Shown here piece by piece: positions 8,896-23,108 of a stretch of DNA of 64,000 nucleotides. How positions within the stretch are numbered: the stretch's first letter is position 1; every line of letters begins with the position of its first letter. A program made the position numbers and the translations under genes. The notes under the pieces were generated by a model. That model was not told where the DNA came from. It did no database searches and saw only the letters and a program-made list of their open reading frames with translations. The DNA comes from an uncultured Clostridia bacterium (lineage in GTDB: Bacteria > Bacillota > Clostridia > Peptostreptococcales > Anaerovoracaceae): the NCBI GenBank assembly GCA_945830395.1, contig CALZYE010000005.1:19601-83600 (forward strand), written 5' to 3'.

Positions 8896-9693
8896 CTACA
8901 ATATCCTTTCTTGTTCCTCTATGTAATTGACTTTATATCTTTCTTTATGTTCAACCCTCTTTCCTTTTGGCCATGTCTTACACTTTGGAGTTTTTAATGC
9001 AACCTCAATATACTCAAGGTGCATTAGCCCAGTAACTGGATGTTCAAACTGTCTTACTCTATCCTTTGGGATATAATAACCCTTTGTTGGTTTTGGGTCT
9101 TGTGAAAACGCTTTGGCGGATACTTCCTCACGCTTTGTTACTGGCATTATTAAATTTTTACTGTGGGAATATCTTTGTTTGTGAATTGAATCTTTTTCTC
9201 TAAATGTTTTCTCAGTTTCTTTTATGAGATATTCTGCTAGATTATGATAATCCCCTTCTTCGTATAGTGGAGTTATATGGACAGCTCCCTTTCCCCAAAC
9301 TCTCTGTATCATTTCAACATCCAAGGAATTGATTATAAAGTGATGATGTATTCTGTGATTCTTATATTCCGTAACCACAATATATTTTAATTCCATTCCT
9401 AGCTTTTTATATTTTCTTTTAAGTCTGTCTATAAAATTCTTTCTATCTTTTGCCGCTCTTTCTCTATCAACCTCGACTGCATAAGTTAAAGAATAGTGAC
9501 CATCCTTCGATGAGAAGTTATTACAGATTAACATCCATAATCTAAACATGGCTAATCTGAAATTATTTTTCTTAACCTTGTCACTTGTTATATTCAATTT
9601 GTTTTTTCTTTTTCCACCATGTTTTCCTGAGGGGCATTTTACCAATCTATGAATTATATCTCCAGCAATTGTTGTATCACGAACAGTTCTCAT
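8896..9693 (-). CDS. HUH-superfamily rolling-circle replication initiator-like protein
   Basis: Motif I HYSLTY, motif II RIHHHFII (HUH), motif III LAEYLIKE (YxxK). Confidence 0.82.
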   Translation of the reverse strand: MRTVRDTTIAGDIIHRLVKCPSGKHGGKRKNKLNITSDKVKKNNFRLAMFRLWMLICNNFSSKDGHYSLTYAVEVDRERAAKDRKNFIDRLKRKYKKLGMELKYIVVTEYKNHRIHHHFIINSLDVEMIQRVWGKGAVHITPLYEEGDYHNLAEYLIKETEKTFREKDSIHKQRYSHSKNLIMPVTKREEVSAKAFSQDPKPTKGYYIPKDRVRQFEHPVTGLMHLEYIEVALKTPKCKTWPKGKRVEHKERYKVNYIEEQERIL

Positions 9694-9801
9694 TTCATAC
9701 CTCTATCTTTAATACTCTAATCAAGGTCTATAGGGACGCCACATGGACATCCCCACATTTAAAATTTGTATACTTTTTCTACATATATATAATGCAGTTT
9801 T

Positions 9802-13902: not shown

Positions 13903-14100
13903 TTAAAGGCTATATACTGGAAAATATGAAATTCCAACTTCCGTTACTGATGTGATCCACTCTTCTTTTATTTTGTATCCGTATTTTCTTAATTCGATGA
14001 TTTGTTCATTTAGATCAAATACGGATAAATATTTCATAGCCTCCCACTTGTTTATATGGCCATGTTTTTTCATAAAGTCTAAAACTGCTATAATTTTCAT
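13903..14100 (-). CDS. Small winged-HTH protein
   Basis: G.I..WEA...L.V..L...I.ELRK.GY.I. Confidence 0.6.
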   Translation of the reverse strand: MKIIAVLDFMKKHGHINKWEAMKYLSVFDLNEQIIELRKYGYKIKEEWITSVTEVGISYFPVYSL

Positions 14101-14102
14101 TT

Positions 14103-14252
14103 TTAGTTCCTTTCTGCTATAATCTCCTTATCATAAGTGGTTGTCTGAACAGCTTTAGCGATTGTTTCAGCTTTTAATTTTAATGGTTGACTTTGTAATT
14201 CTGATACAAGGTCGGCTATTTCCTTTGAAGTTGTTTTGATATTTATTTCCAT
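14103..14252 (-). CDS. Micro-ORF (49 aa)
   Basis: MEINIKTTSKEIADLVSELQSQP...; RBS GGAGG. Confidence 0.5.
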   Translation of the reverse strand: MEINIKTTSKEIADLVSELQSQPLKLKAETIAKAVQTTTYDKEIIAERN

Positions 14253-14318
14253 AACTTTTCCTCCCTCTTTATGTTACCTTTATGTGTTATAATCACCTTT
14301 GAAAGAGAGGTGATTATA

Positions 14319-14633
14319 ATGGAACTAACGAAAGACGCTGATAAACTTCTTTGCCAAATTTATGCGGAATATTTAAAACGCCGAAAAAACGGAGTTCGCA
14401 AAAGTCAAGCTATACATTTTGAAGCTCCGCCACTTCTCGTTGAGGAATTCCTTTGCGGAGAACATCCTGATGATGTTTCAGACTTAATTTTCGATTTGGC
14501 AAAAATAAATTTTGTTGAAGCATACCTTGATGCAAGTTTCTACTTAACTGATAATGCCATAATTTATATGGAAAATCGTTTCAAAAACGGCTTGATTGAG
14601 GTCGCAGATTTCATATCGAAATTTATTCCTTAG
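14319..14633 (+). CDS. Counter-oriented moron, hypothetical protein
   Basis: Own -10 (TATAAT) and RBS; start MELTKDADK. Confidence 0.7.
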   Translation: MELTKDADKLLCQIYAEYLKRRKNGVRKSQAIHFEAPPLLVEEFLCGEHPDDVSDLIFDLAKINFVEAYLDASFYLTDNAIIYMENRFKNGLIEVADFISKFIP

Positions 14634-14796
14634 TACGTCTGGAGCCTTCCTCAAACCATTCATCTTTATTTATGTGAAGGCTCCAACTTTCAGCATCAAG
14701 AGTTAATGTTAATTCCCTAACCCGTTCCATAGATTCCCCGTTCAATTTATAGATCCCATTTTCTAAATCTATATGAATGGATTTAAATGTTTTCAT
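14623..14796 (-). CDS. Micro-ORF (57 aa)
   Basis: MKTFKSIHIDLENGIYKLNGE...; RBS AGGAGG. Confidence 0.5.
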   Translation of the reverse strand: MKTFKSIHIDLENGIYKLNGESMERVRELTLTLDAESWSLHINKDEWFEEGSRRTKE

Positions 14797-14836
14797 ACTT
14801 CCTCCTTCTTTATTTCTGATTCAGTGTTGGTTTACT

Positions 14837-15040
14837 TTACTCTCCTAGAACATACCTACTGCTTAATTCCTTTAGGAACTTATTAGCTAAATCCACATCT
14901 CTTATGACTCTTTCTTCTGCCTTTAACTGATTGATAAATCTGTCGGTTACCCCGACTTTTTCTGCAATTTCTTTTGATGCAATCCCTTTCTCTTCGATTT
15001 CGTTTACAATCAATCTTGTGATTTCTTTTTTACATTCCAT
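14837..15040 (-). CDS. Cro/XRE-like HTH protein
   Basis: KEIAEKVGVT..FI.QL. Confidence 0.7.
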   Translation of the reverse strand: MECKKEITRLIVNEIEEKGIASKEIAEKVGVTDRFINQLKAEERVIRDVDLANKFLKELSSRYVLGE

Positions 15041-15160
15041 AGTGCACTTGCTTTACTCCTTTCATAGTGATATACTATATATTGATTAGAACATCTGTTC
15101 TGATTGAAAAGGTTGGTCGAAAGTGTTTTAATCAATAAATCAATGAAAGGAGGTTGTGCC

Positions 15161-15370
15161 ATGAGATATTATTACAACATTAATGCTGATAATAATGGAT
15201 ACCATGAAGTTCATACGGAAACTTGTTCTTTTCTACCTGATATTTCTAACAGAATATACATTGGAAATTTCTCAACATGCCGAGAAGCTATTGCTGAAGC
15301 TCAACGAAAACATGCATTTATGGATTTCGATGGTTGTTATTTCTGTTGCAAATCTTGTCATAAGGGTTAA
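15161..15370 (+). CDS. Counter-oriented Cys/His-rich small protein
   Basis: HEVH...C..LP...NR...G.F..C..A...DGCYFCC..CH; own -10, RBS and terminator. Confidence 0.75.
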   Translation: MRYYYNINADNNGYHEVHTETCSFLPDISNRIYIGNFSTCREAIAEAQRKHAFMDFDGCYFCCKSCHKG

Positions 15371-15375
15371 TCTCT

Positions 15376-15402
15376 AGGGCTGGCTTATGTCAGCCCTTTT
15401 TT
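15376..15402 (+). terminator. Intrinsic terminator
   Basis: AGGGCTG...CAGCCCT followed by a T run. Confidence 0.7.
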
Positions 15403-15548
15403 ACTATCGCATCGGTGTAAAATACTGATTTAACATCTTCAGTTGCTTTTTCTAAAACTTCTAAAGTCAAACCTCTATTCATCATTTGTTCCATGATTAC
15501 ATTTGATAATTTTGTCGATTCTCTTTCTGACCATTCATTATTCATCAT
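15390..15548 (-). CDS. Hypothetical phage protein
   Basis: Start MMNNEW with RBS AAGGAGG. Confidence 0.55.
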   Translation of the reverse strand: MMNNEWSERESTKLSNVIMEQMMNRGLTLEVLEKATEDVKSVFYTDAIVKKG

Positions 15549-15693
15549 CTTGATTTCCTCCTTTCTGTCTTTGATATTCATCTAGCACTGTCAAAATTAA
15601 GCCCGTTGTCGTTAATCCTTTGTGTTTAGCTATTTTTTCAATTTTTATTTTTAATTTTTTCGGTAGTCTTAGTAATATACTTGTCTTATCCAT
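15538..15693 (-). CDS. Ribbon-helix-helix protein 1 (51 aa; not in the ORF track)
   Basis: MDKTSILLRLPKKLKIKIEKIAKHKGLTTTGLILTVLDEY... Confidence 0.75.
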   Translation of the reverse strand: MDKTSILLRLPKKLKIKIEKIAKHKGLTTTGLILTVLDEYQRQKGGNQDDE

Positions 15694-15834
15694 TTTCCTC
15701 TCCTTTCCGTTTAGATATATTTAAGATATCTATAATATATCCTTTGCAATATATCTTGTCAATACCTTTTGGATATCTTTTTTATTTTTATATTCTGTGA
15801 TATAATTTTGATATCTAATGAAAGGGGGGCTATT

Positions 15835-15990
15835 ATGGCTAATATTTATCAATATCCATTAAAGATTGACCGCGATTTAATGGATAAATTAAAATCAATC
15901 GCCGACGAAGAGGGGCGCTCAGTCAATAAGCAAATTGAATTTATTATCCGTCAATTTTTAAAATCTTATGAGAACGGTAATAATCAATAG
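15835..15990 (+). CDS. Arc-family ribbon-helix-helix protein 2 (51 aa)
   Basis: YPLKIDRDLMDKLKSIADEEGRSVNKQIEFII. Confidence 0.85.
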   Translation: MANIYQYPLKIDRDLMDKLKSIADEEGRSVNKQIEFIIRQFLKSYENGNNQ

Positions 15991-16099
15991 CCCACATTAT
16001 TAATTCGTGGGTGCTTATGCCCATTCGCTCAGCTTCTTCTTTTAACGCTTCGTAGACCCCATCAGGTAACCGGAGCGTTATTTGTTTGCGGTTTTCCAT
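15944..16099 (-). CDS. Ribbon-helix-helix protein 3 (51 aa; not in the ORF track)
   Basis: MENRKQITLRLPDGVYEALKEEAERMGISTHELIMWAID...; RBS GGAGG. Confidence 0.78.
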   Translation of the reverse strand: MENRKQITLRLPDGVYEALKEEAERMGISTHELIMWAIDYYRSHKILKIDG

Positions 16100-16123
16100 G
16101 ATTTCCTCCCTCTTCAGTGTTGG

Positions 16124-16450
16124 TTTAGTTTTCTAAACTAAATGAATAAAAAAATAAGCTGGGATATTTGTTATGGGTTCATTTAATACTATCATAGTAG
16201 CTTTCATTTCTTCTTGTGACCATTCAGCATTGTTATTAAGTTTTAAGTTGATTGTTGAAAGACCCATACCTATAGCTTTTGCAAAAGCCTCTTGCGTTCC
16301 GAATTTTTCTTTAATTTTTCCCTTTAGCCTTCTATAATCGTAATTCATTTTTGCTCCTTTCTTTGTTTAGTTTTCTAAATTTTATCATCCCTTAAATCTA
16401 AAGTTAACACTTTTTTTCAGTTTTCTAAAGATAAAGTTTGATTTTCTAAA
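16124..16450. promoter_or_regulatory. Four candidate cI/Cro operators, consensus TTTAG-N4-CTAAA
   Basis: Copies at 16124-16137, 16366-16379, 16416-16429 (TTCAG) and 16437-16450 (TTTGA), around the cro/cI divergent promoters. Confidence 0.7.
16133..16348 (-). CDS. Cro-like repressor (DUF739-type)
   Basis: YDY..L.GKIKEKFGTQ..FA.A.G......KLN....W.Q.E. Confidence 0.85.
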   Translation of the reverse strand: MNYDYRRLKGKIKEKFGTQEAFAKAIGMGLSTINLKLNNNAEWSQEEMKATMIVLNEPITNIPAYFFIHLV

Positions 16451-16490
16451 TAGAATTAAGTATAATGGTAAACAACAAAGGAGAACTCAC

Positions 16491-17129
16491 ATGGATATAA
16501 GAACAAAACGATTAAGAGAATTGTTTGAGCAATCAGGTTTATCTCAAACAGAGGTATGTAGTAGAACTGGAATAAATAAAGGTGCGTTAAGCTCTTACTT
16601 ATCAGGTAGATACTTCCCTAAGCAAAATGCTTTGGAACAATTAGCTAATATATTTAATGTTTCAATTAAGTATTTGATGGGAATTAGTAATTTGCCTCAG
16701 GAATACAAATACAATGATTTTGAAGGAATAACCAATGTATCTTTTCCCGCTGCGCACCCTATTCCAATCCTTGGAGATATTTGTGCTGGCAATGGAATAT
16801 TTTGTGAAGAAAATTATATGGGTAATTTTTTTATAGACAAATCAGTTAAAGCAGATTTCTGTGTAAATGTACAAGGTGATTCTATGATTGATGCTGGTAT
16901 ACAGAATGGTGATTTGGCGTTCTGCCGGCAATCGTTTGATTTTTCTTCAGGTAAAATTTATGCCGTTAGAATCAACTCTAATAATGATGCAGTTTTGAAG
17001 CGTGTAATTAGACAAGGTGATACATTAATACTGGCACCTTGTAATAAAGATTATGATCCAATTGTATCCGATGACGAGGGTGTTATGATTCTCGGTGAGT
17101 ATGTAGGCGTTTATCATTCGGAAATATAA
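16491..17129 (+). CDS. cI/LexA-like repressor with S24 peptidase domain
   Basis: N-terminal HTH; ICAG cleavage site; GDSM...GD...; VLKR. Confidence 0.92.
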   Translation: MDIRTKRLRELFEQSGLSQTEVCSRTGINKGALSSYLSGRYFPKQNALEQLANIFNVSIKYLMGISNLPQEYKYNDFEGITNVSFPAAHPIPILGDICAGNGIFCEENYMGNFFIDKSVKADFCVNVQGDSMIDAGIQNGDLAFCRQSFDFSSGKIYAVRINSNNDAVLKRVIRQGDTLILAPCNKDYDPIVSDDEGVMILGEYVGVYHSEI

Positions 17130-17202
17130 AAAAGACCTGCCATTCCCGACGAGTCTCTAAATGTGTGTACCAAGTACCTTAAAAAAGGATACCTGTACAT
17201 AT
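17128..17202 (-). repeat. Dispersed repeat, copy 1 (after cI)
   Basis: AGACCTGCCATT...GAGTCTCTAAATGTGTGTACCAAGTACCTT; hairpin plus U-tract on the minus strand. Confidence 0.75.
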
Positions 17203-17247
17203 ATTATAAATTATAATTTTAATATATAAATTGAAAGGATGGTTATT

Positions 17248-17724
17248 ATGAAAAAAATTATTGTATTAAGTTTGTGCATCGCAATTGCCTTTGCTTCTAC
17301 TGCTTGTGGTGACAAAAAGGAGACTTCAAGTTCTTCTAACACCGACACAAAAAAAGAAGAAGTGAAAAAGGATTTTAGTGGGAAACATTCTGAAAAGGGA
17401 AAAGGAAAGATATTTATTGTTACTCCATCAGGCAGTTCTAAAAATGGAAAAACTCCTTTTATATATGTAGATGAGAATACTGCAGTAACTCAAATTTCTC
17501 TTGAAGCTATCGGGATTGATGGCTCAAAACTTTCATACATCTATATAGATGGTATGGAAAATAAAAAAGACCAGATTGGAGATTATCAAGGAACACTGTC
17601 TCTTGAGGGTGATGCTTTGAAGAAAGGAAAACATAAAGTTGAATTAGTTCAATACGATAATGATAAACCAAAAGGGAAGATAATTACATATAAATCTTCT
17701 ATGTATGAGGTCAAAGAAAAATAG
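17248..17724 (+). CDS. Phage lipoprotein (possible superinfection exclusion)
   Basis: Signal peptide with lipobox STAC; Ser/Lys linker; lies between cI and int. Confidence 0.8.
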   Translation: MKKIIVLSLCIAIAFASTACGDKKETSSSSNTDTKKEEVKKDFSGKHSEKGKGKIFIVTPSGSSKNGKTPFIYVDENTAVTQISLEAIGIDGSKLSYIYIDGMENKKDQIGDYQGTLSLEGDALKKGKHKVELVQYDNDKPKGKIITYKSSMYEVKEK

Positions 17725-17740
17725 AATAAAACTTAATAAA

Positions 17741-17794
17741 AAATAAAGAGACCTACCGTTACAGGCAAGCCTCAAGTAAGTGTATCAAGTATCT
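17741..17794 (-). repeat. Dispersed repeat, copy 2 (after the lipoprotein gene)
   Basis: GAGACCTACCGTTACAGGCAAGCCTCAAGTAAGTGTATCAAGTATCT. Confidence 0.8.
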
Positions 17795-17855
17795 AATTTA
17801 CCATTTGTGAAACATGTTGGCGAAATAAAATATAATTAAAAATATTGAAGTAATG

Positions 17856-17884
17856 TTGACAAAAAATGATACACATTGTATAGT
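17856..17884 (+). promoter_or_regulatory. SigA promoter of the Abi locus
   Basis: TTGACA-17 bp-TATAGT with TG just upstream of the -10. Confidence 0.8.
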
Positions 17885-17890
17885 GTAATC

Positions 17891-17962
17891 AACAGAGTTG
17901 CCCGACGCTGATTCGGGGACCAACCGGAGTTACACTTTTGTGTGCTCCGGTTTTTACTTTTT
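17891..17962 (+). ncRNA. Structured leader / candidate antitoxin RNA upstream of Abi
   Basis: Hairpin CCCGA..TCGGG, then AACCGGAG-TACAC/GTGTG-CTCCGGTT with a U-tract. Confidence 0.55.
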
Positions 17963-17974
17963 AAGGGAAAAATA

Positions 17975-18865
17975 ATGATAAAAGACTTAAAAAAACCTCT
18001 AACTTATGAAGAACAGTTAGAAAAATTGAAAGAACATAAATTAAAAATTGGCGATGAAGCAAAAGCATTAAAAATATTAGAGCGCTTAAATTACTACAAA
18101 CTGTCTGGTTACGGTTTAGGGTTTCGTAATGAAAAATATAGTGATTTATATAAGCCTGGGACTTCTTTTGAGCTGCTATATGAATTATTTTTATTTGATG
18201 AAGAGCTTCGGATCTTCCTCTTAAAATTTCTTTTGAAGATAGAAATTTACTTAAGAACAAGGATAGCAAATGACTTTTCATTAATAAAATGTAAAGAATC
18301 TCCCTACGACCAACACTATGATATTGAGAACTATTATCGTAAAGAAAAGTTTCAGGAAGTTTTCAATTCCCTTGAAAAGGAAAAAGATAATAATTCTGAC
18401 AGTTTAGTAATTAAGCATCATGATAAAAAATATAACGGCAAAATGCCTTTATGGGTAATAGTCGAACTCTTATCTTTTTCTAATTTGTCAAAGTACTATA
18501 ATTCTCTGTTTGAATCTGACAAGAAAGTTATTGCAGATAAATTGGGAGTCGCCCATAAAGTTTTATCAAACCATATGCATTGCCTTTCTGTTCTGAGAAA
18601 TAAATGTGCACATAGTTCACGAATATATAATAATGATTTCGCACCTCCGGCAAAGCTCGGTAGAGAATATTTAAAAAAATATAATGATGTTTTTAACGGT
18701 TCACTATTTGCATATTGCAGAATCATCTATCTAAGGCTTCCTGAAGAAAAAGATAAAAAAGATTTTGTCAAAGGCTTAAAAAATATAATTTCAGATTATG
18801 AAGAATCTATTAATCTATCAGATATCGGCTTCCCTGCAGATTGGTTAAAAGTAATATCTGTTTAA
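17975..18865 (+). CDS. Abi-family protein (AbiD/AbiF group, HEPN-type RNase)
   Basis: KKPLTYEEQL..L, NYY.LSGY, MPLWV.VE.LSF, HEPN-like RNKCAH. Confidence 0.9.
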   Translation: MIKDLKKPLTYEEQLEKLKEHKLKIGDEAKALKILERLNYYKLSGYGLGFRNEKYSDLYKPGTSFELLYELFLFDEELRIFLLKFLLKIEIYLRTRIANDFSLIKCKESPYDQHYDIENYYRKEKFQEVFNSLEKEKDNNSDSLVIKHHDKKYNGKMPLWVIVELLSFSNLSKYYNSLFESDKKVIADKLGVAHKVLSNHMHCLSVLRNKCAHSSRIYNNDFAPPAKLGREYLKKYNDVFNGSLFAYCRIIYLRLPEEKDKKDFVKGLKNIISDYEESINLSDIGFPADWLKVISV

Positions 18866-18936
18866 ATAAATAGACCTGCCATTATCAGCGAGCCTCAAGT
18901 AAGTGTATCAAGCATCTTAAGAAAATACCCGCATAT
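18866..18936 (-). repeat. Dispersed repeat, copy 3 (after Abi)
   Basis: AGACCTGCCATTATCAGCGAGCCTCAAGTAAGTGTATCAAGCATCTT. Confidence 0.8.
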
Positions 18937-19114
18937 TTGTGGATTGCAAATTAACACAGATTAATGTGTGACAGCATGTACGATATCATGTGCGGTGGAC
19001 ACCATTTTTTTATTTCTGAAATTGCAATATTTCCACTCAAAATAATTAGAACTATTAGTGATAGCATGTGCGGTATTACATAGATTGGAAATTGTAAAAA
19101 TAACGGAGTCTGAA

Positions 19115-20191
19115 ATGAAAAAATATAAATTCAAAACAACATTTACTTTTGACGGAAAGCGTTATCAAATATATGCTGATACTCAAAAGGAACTATACAG
19201 AAAAGCTGAGAGGAAAAAAATTGAATTAGAACAAGGTAAAATTGAACTTGCTGGGAATATGACTTTGGCTCAATGGATAGAAAAATGCATAAGTACCTAT
19301 AAAACAAATCAAAAAGAAATTACTAATAAGAAATATAGGGCAAGAATAAAACACTGCATAACTGACCGTATAGGCAAGTATCCTTTAAGGTCAATCAAGC
19401 CTCTTCAATTACAAGAATGTATGAATCTCCAGATTGGTAAATCAAAGACTCAAATTAATGAAGTTTATAATGCTATTAAATTTTTCTTTGAAAAAGCTAT
19501 AGATAATCAGCTAATATCGGTTGATCCTTCTAAAAGTTTGATTAAACCTTTAGGATATACTAATCATAGGAGAGCATTAACTGAAAAAGAGCAAATACAC
19601 CTTCTTAAGGTCGCAATAACCGATAGGAGATATTACTTATTCCTACTTATGTTTTATTGCGGATGCAGACCGGAAGAAGCTGCTGAATGTCAAGGTCGTG
19701 ATATAATCAAAAGAGATGGTATTTATTTGCTCCACATTCGAGGAACAAAGACTATAAACTCTGATAGATTAGTACCACTACCTACAGTTTTTTTTGATCT
19801 TATAAAGGATACTCCTGCATTTGATTACATCGCATGCTATAATAACGGAAATAAAATAAACAGTGCAAATAGAAATAGAGTATGGAAATCATTAAAACGA
19901 CAGATGAATATCGATATGGGATGTAGAGTTTACAGGAATCAGTTGGTTCCGCCTTATCCTTTGGCAAGTGATATTGTACCTTATTGTATCCGCCACACAT
20001 ACTGTACTAATCTTGCAAGAAAAGGTATAGATATTAGAATCGCACAGAAATTAATGGGGCACTCTGATATTAGCCTAACTGCTAACATCTATACACATGT
20101 AGATATTATAGATGTTGTTAAAATAGCACATTCTATAGATAGTAATGTATTACCTTGTGGTTTACCTGAACATCAAAAGCTTGCGAAATAG
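19115..20191 (+). CDS. int: Tyrosine recombinase (phage integrase)
   Basis: GCRPEE (R), IRHTY (R-H), MGHS, NIYTH (Y); adjacent to the att site. Confidence 0.95.
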   Translation: MKKYKFKTTFTFDGKRYQIYADTQKELYRKAERKKIELEQGKIELAGNMTLAQWIEKCISTYKTNQKEITNKKYRARIKHCITDRIGKYPLRSIKPLQLQECMNLQIGKSKTQINEVYNAIKFFFEKAIDNQLISVDPSKSLIKPLGYTNHRRALTEKEQIHLLKVAITDRRYYLFLLMFYCGCRPEEAAECQGRDIIKRDGIYLLHIRGTKTINSDRLVPLPTVFFDLIKDTPAFDYIACYNNGNKINSANRNRVWKSLKRQMNIDMGCRVYRNQLVPPYPLASDIVPYCIRHTYCTNLARKGIDIRIAQKLMGHSDISLTANIYTHVDIIDVVKIAHSIDSNVLPCGLPEHQKLAK

Positions 20192-20206
20192 CTATTCTTT
20201 TTCGTA

Positions 20207-20251
20207 TTCCTAAACCGTGCGTCGGGTGTTCGAATCGCCTCTGGGACACCA
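20207..20251 (+). other. att core: 3' half of tRNA-Arg(CCT), not an intact tRNA
   Basis: TTCCTAA anticodon loop, T-arm GGGTGTTCGAATCGCC and CCA end present; 5' half absent. Confidence 0.85.
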
Positions 20252-20256
20252 AGAAC

Positions 20257-20301
20257 AAAAGCCTTGCAATTACTGTGTTTTCAGTAGTTGCAAGGCTTTT
20301 T
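20257..20301 (+). terminator. Terminator after the tRNA fragment
   Basis: AAAAGCCTTGCAAT...GTTGCAAGGCTTTTT. Confidence 0.75.
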
Positions 20302-20500
20302 GTTTTGTTGTATTATATTCTTAAAATCATCCCTCGGTTTTTCTAAACTCTCAATGCCGGATGCTTTGGGAAATTGCAAAGGATTTCTTTCACCTCCATC
20401 AGGTGACAAATACAGTTCTAACGCCTAACTTGCGTTCTCAACAGCTTTTTGAGCAGTGTCCCCTTGCAAATAACAATTTTATCAAACACACATTGTGTAA

Positions 20501-21382
20501 TTAACGGCAATCATCGAAGAAGCTTATTTGTTTTGATGTCTCTTTTTCCTCAAAGGTTTTCAGATATGTAAAAATCTCACCGTTATCGTGCATTATGTTT
20601 TCTTTCTCACAAAACCTGTGGAACATTTGCATTAAGTTATAGTTATTTTTACTGTTCACCATGTAGCTTCTGCCGAACTCCCTAATATATCTGTTTTTAA
20701 GTCCCAGAAAATTTTTATCAAGCTTGGAATAAAAGTATTCCCTATTGCCTTCTCTCAATGTAAGACCCATACCGAAGCAAATTATTCCTTTTACCTCTGC
20801 TTCTTTACAATAGTTCAGAATCCCCATGAGATTTTCCTCCGTATCATTGATGAAAGGCAGAATCGGTGTGAGCCACACTACTGTCGGGATTCCCGCATCC
20901 CTTAAAGCGCGCAGAGCTTCAAATCGCTCTTTTGTGGTGGAAACATTGGGTTCTATCAGTTTACAGAGTCTTCCATCATAAGTGGTAAGTGTCATCTGAA
21001 TAACGCACTTGGTTTTAGCATTTATCTCCGTCAATAAATCCAAATCTCTGATTATGTCTGCCGATTTTGTTATAAGCGTAATCCCGAACCCTCGTTTATT
21101 TATCACCTCAAGCGCCTGCCTTGTTTTCTTCAATCTGAGTTCCTCTCGTATATACGGATCCGTCATGGAGCCTAAGCCGATTATGCATTTTTTTCTCTTT
21201 CGCTTCAAACAATCGTCCAACAGCTGTATTGCATTTTCTTTTATCTCCACATCTTCAAAGTCATGATTCATCTGATAACACTTGCTCCTGGAATCACAAT
21301 AAATGCAGCCGTGTGTACATCCTCTAAATAAATTCATCCCATTTTTTGAAGACAATATTCCCTTTACCTTTGTAAAATGCAT
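20501..21382 (-). CDS. Radical SAM protein (SPL-like)
   Basis: CTHGCIYCD (CxxxCxxC); GSMTDPY. Confidence 0.88.
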   Translation of the reverse strand: MHFTKVKGILSSKNGMNLFRGCTHGCIYCDSRSKCYQMNHDFEDVEIKENAIQLLDDCLKRKRKKCIIGLGSMTDPYIREELRLKKTRQALEVINKRGFGITLITKSADIIRDLDLLTEINAKTKCVIQMTLTTYDGRLCKLIEPNVSTTKERFEALRALRDAGIPTVVWLTPILPFINDTEENLMGILNYCKEAEVKGIICFGMGLTLREGNREYFYSKLDKNFLGLKNRYIREFGRSYMVNSKNNYNLMQMFHRFCEKENIMHDNGEIFTYLKTFEEKETSKQISFFDDCR

Positions 21383-21661
21383 CTCATACTCTCCATTATC
21401 ACTTTGCTGATGGAAATATTTTCATTTCCTATTCCAAATTATATCATCTTTTCTTACACCGGCAATCTCCAAACCCGGTTATCCGCTAAAAATTAACAGA
21501 AAATCAATTCAAAGCCCATCCCGATGAAACTTTAAAAAACAACAATTTGTATGTAATCTGGAATTAGACGGAATAAGAACCGATATATTACACCATAATT
21601 TCCAAATAGTTTAAAAATACGGTTGCAACCTGCACGCTTATATAGTACAATACAGGCAAGA

Positions 21662-21679
21662 TTGTTAACTTTATAACAA
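21662..21679. promoter_or_regulatory. Rex-binding site
   Basis: TTGTTAA-CTTT-ATAACAA, one mismatch from the clostridial Rex palindrome, upstream of a CoA-transferase. Confidence 0.65.
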
Positions 21680-21749
21680 AGCGTGTGCAAAATTATTTGT
21701 CACTCGCGTTCACAACAAAATATGAATAAAGAATGAAGAGGAAGTAATT

Positions 21750-23108
21750 ATGTATAAGGTTTCAGAAATTGGCGGAGAATACTCTCGCAAAGTAATTACG
21801 GCAGATCAGGCGGCGGCAATGGTAAAATCAGGTGACCGTCTCCACTTTGGACTGGGATGCGGCTCAGTTGTAGAAATCGACGAAGCTCTTGCAAAGAGAG
21901 CAGATGGTCTGAAAGATATTGAGGTTCTCAGTACGGTAACCATCAGAAAAAAGCCCTTTGCACTGTACACCGCTACCGAAAGCAACGATAGCGTAAGGTT
22001 TGTTTCCGCGCATTTCAGCGGTACTGACAGAACTGTTTCCAAAGACGGACGATGCTGGTACATGCCTATGACCTTTGCGGAGCTTCCTTCCCTTTGGAGC
22101 CGGAATCCAAAGGGTATAGACATTGCAATGTTTCAGGTTGCTCCTATGGACAAATACGGAAACTTCAATGTAGGTCCGCAGATTTCCGACTATTGGGGAG
22201 TTCTCAAGGTGGCAAAAAAAGTTATCGTAGAGGTAAATCCTCTGATGCCTGTCGCTCTCGGTCCTGAAAACAACATAAATATCCAAGATGTGGACTTCGT
22301 TGTGGAGGGTTCAGGTCACGAACTTGCGGAAATTCCCGATAAGGTCGGCGGTGAAGTCGAAACCAAAATTGCAGAACATGTCGTAAGTATGATGAAGTCC
22401 AACTGCACGCTTCAGCTGGGAATAGGCGCTCTGCCCTGTACAATCGGCAAGATGCTTGCAGAATCGGATCTGACCGAAATCAGCGCACATACGGAAATGC
22501 TTGTAAATGCTTATGTGGATCTCTTCGATGCCGGAAAGCTCAGTACAGACAAATCCCGAGACAGAGGAACTGTTCTCTATACCTTTGCCGGAGGGACAAA
22601 GAAGCTTTACGACTTTATAGATAATAACCCGATGTGCTGCAACGCCCCTGTAGATTATATAAATGACCCGCATGTTATCTCCAGCATTGAGAACTTCGTG
22701 TCTATAAACAGCTGTGTTCAGGTGGACCTTCTTTCTCAGGTCTGTTCCGAAACGGCAGGAGTCAGACAGGTCTCCGGAACCGGAGGTCAGCTTGACTTCG
22801 TAGTAGGCGCCTACCGTTCAAAGGGCGGAAAGAGTTTTATATGCACACCTTCAGCCAGAAAAACAGCTGACGGCGAACTGGTATCCAATATCTCTGCAAC
22901 TCTTAAACCGGGTGCCGTGGTTACCACGCCGAGAACTGCAACACACTACATTGTAACTGAATACGGCGCAGCAGACATGAAGGGGCGCTCAACCTGGGAG
23001 AGGGCAGAGAGCTTAATTGAAATTGCACATCCTCATTTCAGAGACGACTTAATCAAGGAAGCTGAAAAAATGGGAATTTGGAGCAAAACGAGCAAGACCT
23101 GCATATAA
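21750..23108 (+). CDS. Acetyl-CoA hydrolase/transferase family (butyryl-CoA:acetate or 4-hydroxybutyrate CoA-transferase)
   Basis: LQLGIGALP, HTEM, SGTGGQLDF, SKGGKSFI, VTEYG. Confidence 0.9.
   Translation: MYKVSEIGGEYSRKVITADQAAAMVKSGDRLHFGLGCGSVVEIDEALAKRADGLKDIEVLSTVTIRKKPFALYTATESNDSVRFVSAHFSGTDRTVSKDGRCWYMPMTFAELPSLWSRNPKGIDIAMFQVAPMDKYGNFNVGPQISDYWGVLKVAKKVIVEVNPLMPVALGPENNINIQDVDFVVEGSGHELAEIPDKVGGEVETKIAEHVVSMMKSNCTLQLGIGALPCTIGKMLAESDLTEISAHTEMLVNAYVDLFDAGKLSTDKSRDRGTVLYTFAGGTKKLYDFIDNNPMCCNAPVDYINDPHVISSIENFVSINSCVQVDLLSQVCSETAGVRQVSGTGGQLDFVVGAYRSKGGKSFICTPSARKTADGELVSNISATLKPGAVVTTPRTATHYIVTEYGAADMKGRSTWERAESLIEIAHPHFRDDLIKEAEKMGIWSKTSKTCI

Follow-up and report, generated by a model that had tools for sequence, protein, structure and literature searches.

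The window, a stretch of 64,000 nucleotides from the genome of an uncultured Clostridia bacterium, contains the lysogeny operon of a prophage, which runs on the plus strand from the gene of a cI-type repressor through cargo genes to an integrase gene (int). The following features were identified:

16491–17129, plus strand: cI-type repressor (HTH and S24 peptidase, Pfam), first gene of the lysogeny operon
17126–17230, minus strand: element copy 1, after cI; appears intact (promoter scan, fold, covariance-model matches)
17248–17724, plus strand: cargo gene (open reading frame), 158 amino acids, lipoprotein-like signal peptide and Cys
17741–17806, minus strand: element copy 2, after the lipoprotein gene; apparently decayed (terminator scan, fold, covariance model)
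17774–19089, no strand: segment swapped for a PemK-domain cassette in the sister contig L041 (blastn)
17856–18865, plus strand: Abi cassette (promoter and terminator scans, Pfam)
18864–18949, minus strand: element copy 3, after Abi_2; promoter-deleted (alignment A6 to intact relatives)
18966–19011, plus strand: terminator-like hairpin and T-run between copy 3 and int (terminator scan, -9.2 kcal/mol)
19115–20191, plus strand: phage tyrosine integrase, last gene of the module (Pfam)
20207–20252, plus strand: attR, a 46-bp copy of the tRNA-Arg(CCT) 3' end (sequence comparison)

A promoter-like site of the repressor gene was detected at 16438–16466 by promoter scan. The 158-amino-acid cargo protein matched no Pfam family; a gene for this lipoprotein-like protein is also present in L041. 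The Abi cassette begins with a promoter (TTGACA-17-TATAGT, 17856–17884), followed by a structured leader with a plus-strand terminator (17925–17957) and the Abi_2 open reading frame (17975–18865; Pfam Abi_2, E 1.1e-47). In promoter and terminator scans, the stretch from cI to the lipoprotein gene showed no plus-strand terminator. The late operon has a strong minus-strand terminator and the att region a bidirectional one. The intact tRNA-Arg gene (attL) is located about 30 kb leftward, beyond the window (contig C5:9590–9665). A 57-codon minus-strand open reading frame (18961–19134) was considered as an excisionase gene ended by copy 3 and was rejected: a ribosome-binding site is lacking, the frame would start with a TTG within int, and its sequence is implausible.

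A first, sequence-only reading of this DNA had placed related elements 3, 23 and 6 nt behind the stop codons of the cI, lipoprotein and Abi genes, and this was confirmed. The stop codons are found at 17127–17129 (cI), 17722–17724 (lipoprotein-like open reading frame) and 18863–18865 (Abi_2), and the hairpins of the elements begin at 17132/3, 17748 and 18871/2, respectively. Copies 2 and 3 share 85% identity across 54 nt, and all three copies could be aligned over 29 nt with identities of 72–79%. The 22-mer said to be common to copies 2 and 3, AGCCTCAAGTAAGTGTATCAAG, indeed occurs twice in the window, against 0.00 occurrences expected. In the whole genome (1.78 Mb) exactly three copies of the element were found by pattern scan and covariance model. 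Judged by their sequences, the three repeats appear to be paralogous copies of a minus-strand unit of about 110 bp, of which one is apparently intact and two are decayed.

Folding of both strands bore out the observation that the hairpin with its U-tract is restricted to the minus strand in all three copies. The minus-strand folds of copies 1, 2 and 3 had energies of -22.6, -17.5 and -14.7 kcal/mol, each with a hairpin followed by a U-tract, versus -12.1, -6.4 and -6.8 kcal/mol on the plus strand, where an equivalent hairpin was absent. The z-scores were -3.9 for copy 1 and -1.2 for copy 3, the latter being a weak fold. A stem-loop containing G+C and followed by a U-tract, as is typical of intrinsic terminators, is thus formed on the minus strand in three of three copies and also in the intact relatives described below; the plus strand has 2–4 mismatches and no T-run. 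The G-U and U-G wobbles of the terminator stem are conserved in 7–8 of 8 copies, and read on the plus strand these pairs are A-C mismatches. Intact modules in relatives folded with -29.3 and -29.6 kcal/mol (z -7.2 to -7.75), and the element of the related contig L064 with -21.9 kcal/mol on the minus strand versus -12.4 kcal/mol on the plus strand. Rfam covariance models gave no relevant match at E <= 1 over positions 14000–22000 of the window, and the candidate RNA family is absent from Rfam.

In copy 1 the promoter scan revealed a minus-strand promoter with the -35 box TTTATA (17230–17225) and the -10 box TATAAT (17208–17203) at a spacer of 16, with 10 of 12 positions matching the consensus. 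The RNA predicted from it starts at about 17196, is about 69 nt long and consists of hairpin 1 (17195–17170), the linker ACACACAUUUA and hairpin 2 (17157–17132), after which the U-tract abuts the cI stop codon. Copy 1 was matched by the covariance models with 76–78 bits, an identical copy is present in L041, and from U-tract to -35 (window 17129–17221) it is homologous to the module found in the contig L042. An 11-bp interrupted match between copy 1 and the int ribosome-binding site was also noticed; it is not conserved in other element types.

Copy 2 retains the terminator hairpin (17773–17748) with its U-tract and a linker block (17796–17774); hairpin 1 is shrunk to about 4 bp, and the TTGCAA/TATAAT promoter is missing, with only a weak TGgTAAATT in its place. 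In the L041 version of copy 2 a promoter-like piece is fused to hairpin 2 and nothing else is retained. Copy 3 comprises hairpin 2 (18896–18871), the linker, hairpin 1 (18931–18909) and the -35 box TTGCAA (18949–18944). Alignment A6 showed that copy 3 is missing the 16–18 bp which in intact relatives hold the TATAAT box. The Abi cassette with its downstream element was found in another context in L064/L065, where the Abi gene is 95% identical to that of the window and is followed by an intact allele of the element with TTGCAA-17-TATAAT; by comparison with this allele, too, copy 3 is 16–18 bp shorter and its TATAAT box is gone. The second hairpin earlier proposed for copies 1 and 3 is real, and in copy 2 it is degenerate. 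Copies 2 and 3 look like decayed relics, and most likely they act as minus-strand terminators alone or have no role. Two other identities were considered for the element and dismissed: the repeats that form the cI/cro operators are of the GTTTTCTAAA type and have no relation to the conserved block, and no convincing similarity with the att core was found that would make it att-like or tRNA-like.

Sister contigs were located by exact-protein look-ups. In alignment A6, a segment of about 112 bp is almost identical in L042, L057, L058/59 and L060, where it lies in four contexts whose flanking sequences are unrelated; some of the variant contexts are from short metagenomic contigs that a repeat could in principle mis-join. 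The conservation is limited by the U-tract at one end and by a minus-strand TTGCAA at the other; in between, read on the minus strand, are the TTGCAA-17-TATAAT promoter, hairpin 1, a CA-rich linker, hairpin 2 and the U-tract. The promoter is positioned 6 nt before hairpin 1 in L042, L058 and L064, and that of copy 1 has the same distance; these calls are consensus matches in AT-rich DNA, and the four L042-type copies are so nearly identical that they provide no independent evidence for a promoter. The earlier claim that the conserved part extends past the hairpin was thus substantiated, as it continues for about 80 bp beyond the terminator and ends at the -35/-10 pair. Since the conservation spans exactly from promoter to U-tract, the module has the outline of a self-contained, predicted small-RNA gene converging on the gene upstream of it. 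Of the unpaired positions, those of the linker GAUACAC(A/U)... are conserved best among the sequence types, and the linker varies by type (ACACACAU versus ACACUUACUU).

Conserved structure with covariation was found, as the sequence-only reading had proposed to check, with modest support from few independent sequences. In hairpin 1 there are compensatory changes across copies, with double changes at three pairs, and in hairpin 2 every one-sided change preserves pairing. Among all pair cells 94% are paired, against 38–51% when the partners were slid. The count of double-change pairs was matched by 167 of 500 shuffles, and these covariation statistics are weak because there are only about five distinct sequence types.

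Pattern and covariance-model searches found no family members beyond this phage lineage. Exact and degenerate element patterns, run over genome, viral and metagenome contigs, gave either nothing or chance matches in coding DNA and generic terminators, and the covariance models R1 and R2 recovered only generic terminators from 400 genomes of the family and 400 of the order. Peptide patterns for close Abi/lipoprotein loci found none, and blastn of a phage collection gave no match. One candidate relative with an adjoining ACUUGAUAC was recognised as a normal terminator belonging to a host transporter gene.

We concluded that the module of about 110 bp is probably a complete minus-strand transcription unit within the cI-cargo-int operon, which also marks the points where cassettes are swapped. 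Its ancestral promoter would be a sigma-70-type TTGCAA-17-TATAAT on the minus strand, and its predicted RNA of about 70 nt would contain hairpin 1, the single-stranded CA-rich linker (GAUACAC...) and hairpin 2, which together with the U-tract would form an intrinsic terminator whose end coincides with the stop codon of the plus-strand gene lying upstream. In this arrangement the modules would be antisense within the lysogeny operon, each convergent on the preceding gene and back-to-back with the promoter region of the next gene. As no plus-strand terminator separates cI from the lipoprotein gene, operon transcripts reading through should include the entire sequence complementary to the small RNA. 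Expression across the junction could then be uncoupled or tuned by convergent transcription together with pairing of the two RNAs, possibly through polymerase collision or processing of double-stranded RNA, as in lambda OOP or ith/tha of 80alpha. Of the earlier suggestion that each gene has its own convergent small RNA, serving as antitoxin or regulator, the architecture held up, given the promoter-to-terminator minus-strand module in relatives; a specific antitoxin role is unlikely, since the module is found with various partner genes. Copy by copy, the sequence features of a small-RNA gene are present in the relatives and in copy 1, which has a plausible promoter, and are incomplete in copies 2 and 3, where no convincing promoter was found.

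The elements could instead be nothing but one-way intrinsic terminators or insulators, which block minus-strand transcription antisense to the lysogeny genes. Sources of such transcription might be read-in from the host, spurious antisense promoters or, in the circular phage, lytic transcription that runs on across attP, and the adjoining promoter-like stretch would be chance AT-rich sequence or belong to the control region of a neighbouring gene. It fits this explanation that hairpin 2 with the U-tract is the sole part retained in every copy, decayed ones included, that two of the three window copies keep the terminator without a convincing promoter, and that minus-strand-only terminators are located just upstream of int in several related prophages. 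A bare terminator would not account for conservation that reaches about 80 bp past it and ends exactly where a -35/-10 pair lies, 6 nt ahead of hairpin 1, nor for the compensatory changes in hairpin 1. Moreover, with the late-operon minus-strand terminator and the bidirectional att terminator already present, little read-through should reach the element sites, and we regard termination alone as rather unlikely. An RNA acting in trans, its CA-rich linker or loops pairing with a distant phage or host mRNA and its location being incidental, seems more doubtful still. The conserved single-stranded linker and the fact that the module is not bound to any single neighbouring gene speak for it; the linker, however, differs between types, and a search for targets over the prophage by seed complementarity and duplex energy gave nothing above background. 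We give even less weight to a selfish miniature repeat that has no phage function, spreads or persists by recombination and decays after insertion. Decay of two of the three window copies and near-identical copies in differing contexts would suit such a repeat, but the orientation is constant, the position is always directly 3' of a stop codon and within the cI-to-int region, terminal inverted repeats and target duplications are lacking, and the element is missing from the rest of the genome.

The cargo between cI and int is different in every related contig, as had been anticipated, the sets being lipoprotein/Abi, lipoprotein/PemK, HSDR_N_2/AlbA_2, NYN and others, and comparison of the related contigs located homology breakpoints at element edges. 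By blastn, L041 is 99.9% identical to the window up to 17773 and the identity resumes at 19090; the left breakpoint is the edge of the copy 2 hairpin and the right one lies about 25 nt upstream of the int start codon. With breakpoints at 17133 and 17773 and the module in at least four contexts, shuffling resembles that of the PeSL cassettes discussed below. Breakpoints are not always at the module, and several cassette borders carry no element. The comparison thus shows the modules at mosaic junctions of a hypervariable defence-cargo region, where they probably serve as homology patches for the recombinational shuffling of cassettes made of a gene and its module.

The sequence-only reading had also proposed swappable cassettes in an integron-like array. 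Variation of the cargo and the breaks in homology at element edges agree with swapping, whereas the integron-like mechanism found no support: attC core sites are absent, the integrase is of the usual phage kind and lies next to a tRNA-Arg att site, and many borders are free of the element. It is accordingly very improbable that the element is a recombination site acting as DNA, either attC-like for the integrase or nicked by an HUH Rep, with cassettes moving as circles. Hairpins on one strand, direct-orientation repeats at gene ends and variable cargo would be expected of such a site, and the phage encodes an HUH Rep (PF23343); RYYYAAC/GTTRRRY core sites are absent, however, and the U-tract and promoter indicate an RNA, not a DNA site. 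The only GTT word that could be read in the element sequence was GTTACAG in the loop of copy 2, which misfits GTTRRRY and does not occur in the other copies. CTTGATA, the nick word of pC194/phiX174-type HUH enzymes, had been pointed out in the conserved block; it occurs 13 times in the window versus 12.2 expected, which is chance frequency, and it is not conserved, since copy 1 has CTTGGTA at this place and the best-preserved copies, those of the L042 type, have CGCGATA; the nick-site idea was rejected. The hairpin upstream of rep has CTTGATT.

By analogy, the closest counterparts of the predicted unit are lambda OOP, the ith/tha noncontiguous operon of 80alpha and the PeSL cassettes of T4. 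Lambda OOP pairs with the 3' end of cII mRNA and triggers RNase III-dependent cleavage (PMC5869508). Like the RNA predicted here, OOP (pO-oop-tO) is short, is transcribed from a promoter of its own to an intrinsic terminator, and lies antisense between two phage operon genes and convergent on the upstream one (cII for OOP); the two sequences are not similar. OOP covers 52 nt of the coding part of cII, whereas the RNA predicted here stops at the stop codon and would overlap read-through RNA only. The phage of OOP is proteobacterial and has one copy of it, in the lytic pR operon; the Clostridia prophage has several paralogous copies, in its lysogeny operon.

In the ith/tha noncontiguous operon of the Staphylococcus phage 80alpha a long transcript from the cI promoter spans the lysogeny cargo including a HEPN defence gene, a small unit antisense within it has a constitutive promoter of its own, and mutual interference of the two directions of transcription switches between lysogeny and lysis (PMC11087260). 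The layout fits the one seen here from the sequence alone; ith encodes a protein inhibitor, while the unit here has no room for a coding sequence and would work as RNA or through transcription alone, and it is repeated and portable. PeSLs of T4-like phages are small composite promoter/terminator motifs that recur at the borders of variable ORFs and serve as exchange points for sequences which otherwise have no relation to each other (PMC2839356, PMC4122927). They lie on the gene strand, the stem-loop ending the upstream gene and the promoter driving the downstream one; in the element both signals are on the opposite strand and enclose the predicted RNA of about 70 nt, and the phage is temperate with the element in its cI-to-int cargo region.

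Type I antitoxin RNAs such as RatA and SR4 on Bacillus prophages are convergent with a neighbouring gene, overlap the 3' end of its mRNA with their 3' part, and are common on prophages. Here the upstream partners are cI, the lipoprotein gene, Abi_2 and gene remnants, not small hydrophobic toxins, and one and the same module is placed after unrelated genes. Phage morons are cargo genes with their own promoters between conserved phage genes, and classical ones end in a same-strand terminator. The Abi cassette is moron-like in moving as a unit; it differs in its 3' cap, a predicted opposite-strand transcription unit.

Repressor-integrase regions of prophages are hot spots for anti-phage defence genes. 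To our knowledge it is poorly understood how lysogens keep these genes expressed with no damage to the lytic cycle of the phage itself and by what means the genes are exchanged with such ease, and a recurring antisense RNA unit at cassette junctions would offer a concrete element for both questions. We tentatively propose that temperate phages of this Clostridia lineage may cap their lysogeny-operon cargo with a portable antisense small-RNA gene, which would tune or insulate expression and give homology for shuffling. If so, the small RNA might switch defence genes off upon induction, and the module would be a temperate-phage, opposite-strand counterpart of the PeSLs; even in the absence of such an RNA, the recombination joints of the cargo region would still be marked by one-way terminators with their flanks. 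More distant int relatives have non-homologous units with the same layout, a promoter and a two-hairpin RNA, directly upstream of int, which could then belong to a broader class of two-hairpin RNAs divergent from int and doing the same job. In L058/L060 the palindromic -35 box TTGCAA is common to the element and to a plus-strand int promoter-like site, so that the small-RNA and int promoters would be mutually exclusive.

Three related elements were found directly 3' of the stop codons of cI, a lipoprotein-like gene and an Abi_2 gene (copies 1, 2 and 3) in a prophage of approx. 30 kb, whose right part forms the first 20.25 kb of the window. The lytic genes of this prophage, terminase and portal among them, are on the minus strand. 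The relevant features are:

8896-9693, minus strand, HUH Rep (PF23343, E 2e-13)
16133-16348, minus strand, cro-like DUF739 gene
16491-17129, plus strand, cI (HTH + S24), lysogeny module
17248-17724, plus strand, lipoprotein-like gene (158 aa), lysogeny module
17975-18865, plus strand, Abi_2 gene, lysogeny module
19115-20191, plus strand, tyrosine integrase (int), lysogeny module
20207-20252, attR, 46-bp copy of the tRNA-Arg(CCT) 3' end

The intact tRNA-Arg(CCT) lies 30 kb leftward on the same contig. Folded as minus-strand RNA, copies 1, 2 and 3 gave a hairpin and then a U-tract (-22.6, -17.5 and -14.7 kcal/mol), whereas the plus-strand folds (-12.1, -6.4 and -6.8 kcal/mol) lacked this arrangement. 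The sequence-only reading was thus borne out in the position and relatedness of the elements, their structure on the minus strand only, and the 22 nt identical in copies 2 and 3, which were found nowhere else. A pattern search and a covariance model both gave three copies in the whole 1.78-Mb genome. The element was absent from the 200–400 same-family and the 400 same-order genomes searched, where weak matches were ordinary terminators; Rfam contained no matching family.

Sister prophage contigs (L-numbers) were found through exact-protein look-ups and the closest homologues of cI, int and Abi, and some of their contexts are known from short metagenomic contigs. Peptide-pattern searches returned distant relatives only, all without the element. 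In L042, L057, L058/L059 and L060 a near-identical stretch of ~112 bp was present in four contexts, its flanks being unrelated on either side. It starts at the U-tract (AAATAAAGAGACC...) and stops at ...AAGTTGCAAATT (alignment A6), and on the minus strand it reads TTGCAA-17-TATAAT, 6 nt, hairpin 1, GAUACACACAU, hairpin 2 and UUUAUUU. A promoter scan called the promoter, as a consensus match, in L042, L058 and L064, and the predicted RNA folds with -29.3 and -29.6 kcal/mol (z -7.2 to -7.75).

In an alignment of eight copies, which represent about five sequence types, standard pairs occupied 94% of the pair cells, compared with 38–51% when the partners were slid; three pairs of hairpin 1 had changed on both sides, and the changes in hairpin 2 were all one-sided and kept its pairing. 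In hairpin 2 a G-U and a U-G pair occur in 7–8 of the 8 copies; on the plus strand these positions would mismatch, which argues for selection of the structure on the minus strand. As the sample was small and the alignment was fitted to the model, we regard this structural evidence as supportive, not decisive.

Copy 1 has the full layout (TTTATA-16-TATAAT, 6 nt, hairpin 1) with a weaker -35, and its homology to the L042-type module extends from the U-tract through the -35. Copy 3 kept TTGCAA (18944-18949), lost the TATAAT box and is 16–18 bp shorter than intact alleles, one of which lies behind a 95%-identical Abi gene in L064/L065. Copy 2 retains linker and terminator, with hairpin 1 down to ~4 bp and no clear promoter; in its L041 counterpart a promoter-like piece is joined straight to hairpin 2. 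These losses indicate that copies decay by internal deletions. The part that survives is the terminator adjoining the upstream stop codon, as would be expected if the element were a terminator only. We consider that reading unlikely, because conservation coincides exactly with the promoter-to-terminator span, our main argument for a small transcription unit. With promoters that are consensus matches and few independent sequences, the element is probably a small-RNA module. Insulation from late read-through alone was rejected; the last late gene already ends in a strong terminator of its own on the minus strand, and a bidirectional one lies in the att region.

Gene order from the cI side to the int side (L064 as found on its contig):
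Window: cI, lipoprotein, Abi, int
L041: cI, lipoprotein, PemK-278, int
L042: cI, HSDR_N_2, AlbA_2, int
L043: cI, HSDR_N_2, PemK-248, int
L057: NYN, int; cI side beyond the contig
L058/L059: HSDR_N_2, PemK-277, int; cI also visible in L058
L060: Abi leader without Abi ORF, int
L064: KilA-N, Abi, then Fic; IS110 transposase adjoining; contig without cI or int

The elements had also been proposed to delimit swappable cassettes in an integron-like array beside the integrase. The cI-to-int content does differ among relatives. Window and L041 match at 99.9% identity as far as 17773, where the copy 2 hairpin ends, and diverge completely from there to 19090, ~25 nt before the int start; towards L042/L058, 91% identity through cI breaks at 17133, the start of copy 1. 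The Abi cassette (promoter, leader, ORF and module) recurs in another neighbourhood in L064/L065, and two module alleles are known after the Abi 3' end, the window/L064 type and the L060 type. From the breakpoints and the recurring cassette we concluded that the cargo is swappable, with modules at joints. However, several joints are without any module, and nothing pointed to site-specific chemistry at the cargo joints. The integron-like array was discarded: attC core sites are lacking, and the integrase, sited at a tRNA att site, is of the ordinary phage kind. The suggested HUH nick word CTTGATA fared no better: it occurs at chance frequency (13 in the window, 12.2 expected), copy 1 has CTTGGTA in its place and the best-preserved modules have CGCGATA, and the hairpin ahead of rep carries CTTGATT.

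The HUH Rep is the one replication initiator that could be recognised among the early genes. On the minus strand its gene is preceded, ~25–60 nt upstream, by a hairpin and then CCTTGATT (gene and hairpin region together 8896-9753). Abi_2 is served by a promoter of its own (TTGACA-17-TATAGT) and a structured leader closed by a plus-strand terminator (17856-17975). In L060 (1-45) this leader is fused directly to the last 15 nt of the gene, the ORF being absent between short TTAAGG/TTAAAAG repeats, with leader and downstream module retained.

The unit is antisense within the cI operon, and no plus-strand terminator was found between cI and the lipoprotein gene, so that read-through RNA would be fully complementary to the predicted small RNA, and polymerases would converge. 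The two RNAs would then pair and the polymerases collide head-on, a specific antisense-interference mechanism that we put forward tentatively. Lambda pO-oop-tO has the same layout, and its RNA pairs with the cII mRNA 3' end in a hybrid cleaved by RNase III (PMC5869508). The layout is shared also by the noncontiguous operon of 80alpha, in which an antisense unit lies inside the cI transcript with a HEPN defence gene adjoining, and the two transcription directions exclude each other between lysogeny and lysis (PMC11087260). The palindromic TTGCAA of L058/L060 is at the same time the -35 of a TTGCAA-16-CATAAT site on the plus strand before int, which suggests promoter competition. PeSLs are likewise repeated promoter/terminator composites at swap points, but the modules here are on the opposite strand (PMC2839356, PMC4122927).

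Units of the same layout, without sequence homology, stand immediately before int in distant prophages with related integrases. Each consists of a strong promoter on the minus strand, an RNA of 70–90 nt with two hairpins, and a terminator (z -5.2 to -6.1). In several of them the promoter directly adjoins the ribosome-binding site of int.

L006 8282-8420, minus strand
L007 6700-6810, minus strand
L009 7590-7700, minus strand
L024 4870-4990, minus strand
L026 4860-4990, minus strand

Downstream of each of the PemK-domain cargo genes (248–278 aa) of sister prophages, a same-strand promoter (e.g. TTGACT-17-TATAAT), ~60–70 nt and a terminator were seen, a candidate small-RNA partner of the toxin-like gene.

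L041 2555-2670, same strand as the PemK gene
L043 8222-8350, same strand
L057 1190-1330, same strand
L058 3623-3735, same strand

A motif of ~15 bp (GAYAGCATGTRCGRT) occurs three times upstream of int (18968-19076), and in L042 (7826-7850) the module is followed by two copies resembling it; a regulator or the integrase arm domain may bind at these motifs. The att duplication (window 20207-20330; 9621-9740 of C5, the contig carrying the window) runs past the 46-bp tRNA-Arg 3' end through a second copy of the bidirectional terminator, differing slightly from the first, and a further ~25 bp, which indicates that attP and the host site share ~120 bp of homology. The L058 prophage occupies the same host locus as that of the window, with an acetyl-CoA hydrolase downstream (L058 6672-8030 compared with window 20501-23108); the host flank by attR differs, with a radical-SAM gene in the window (20501-21382, minus strand) and two small ORFs in L058.
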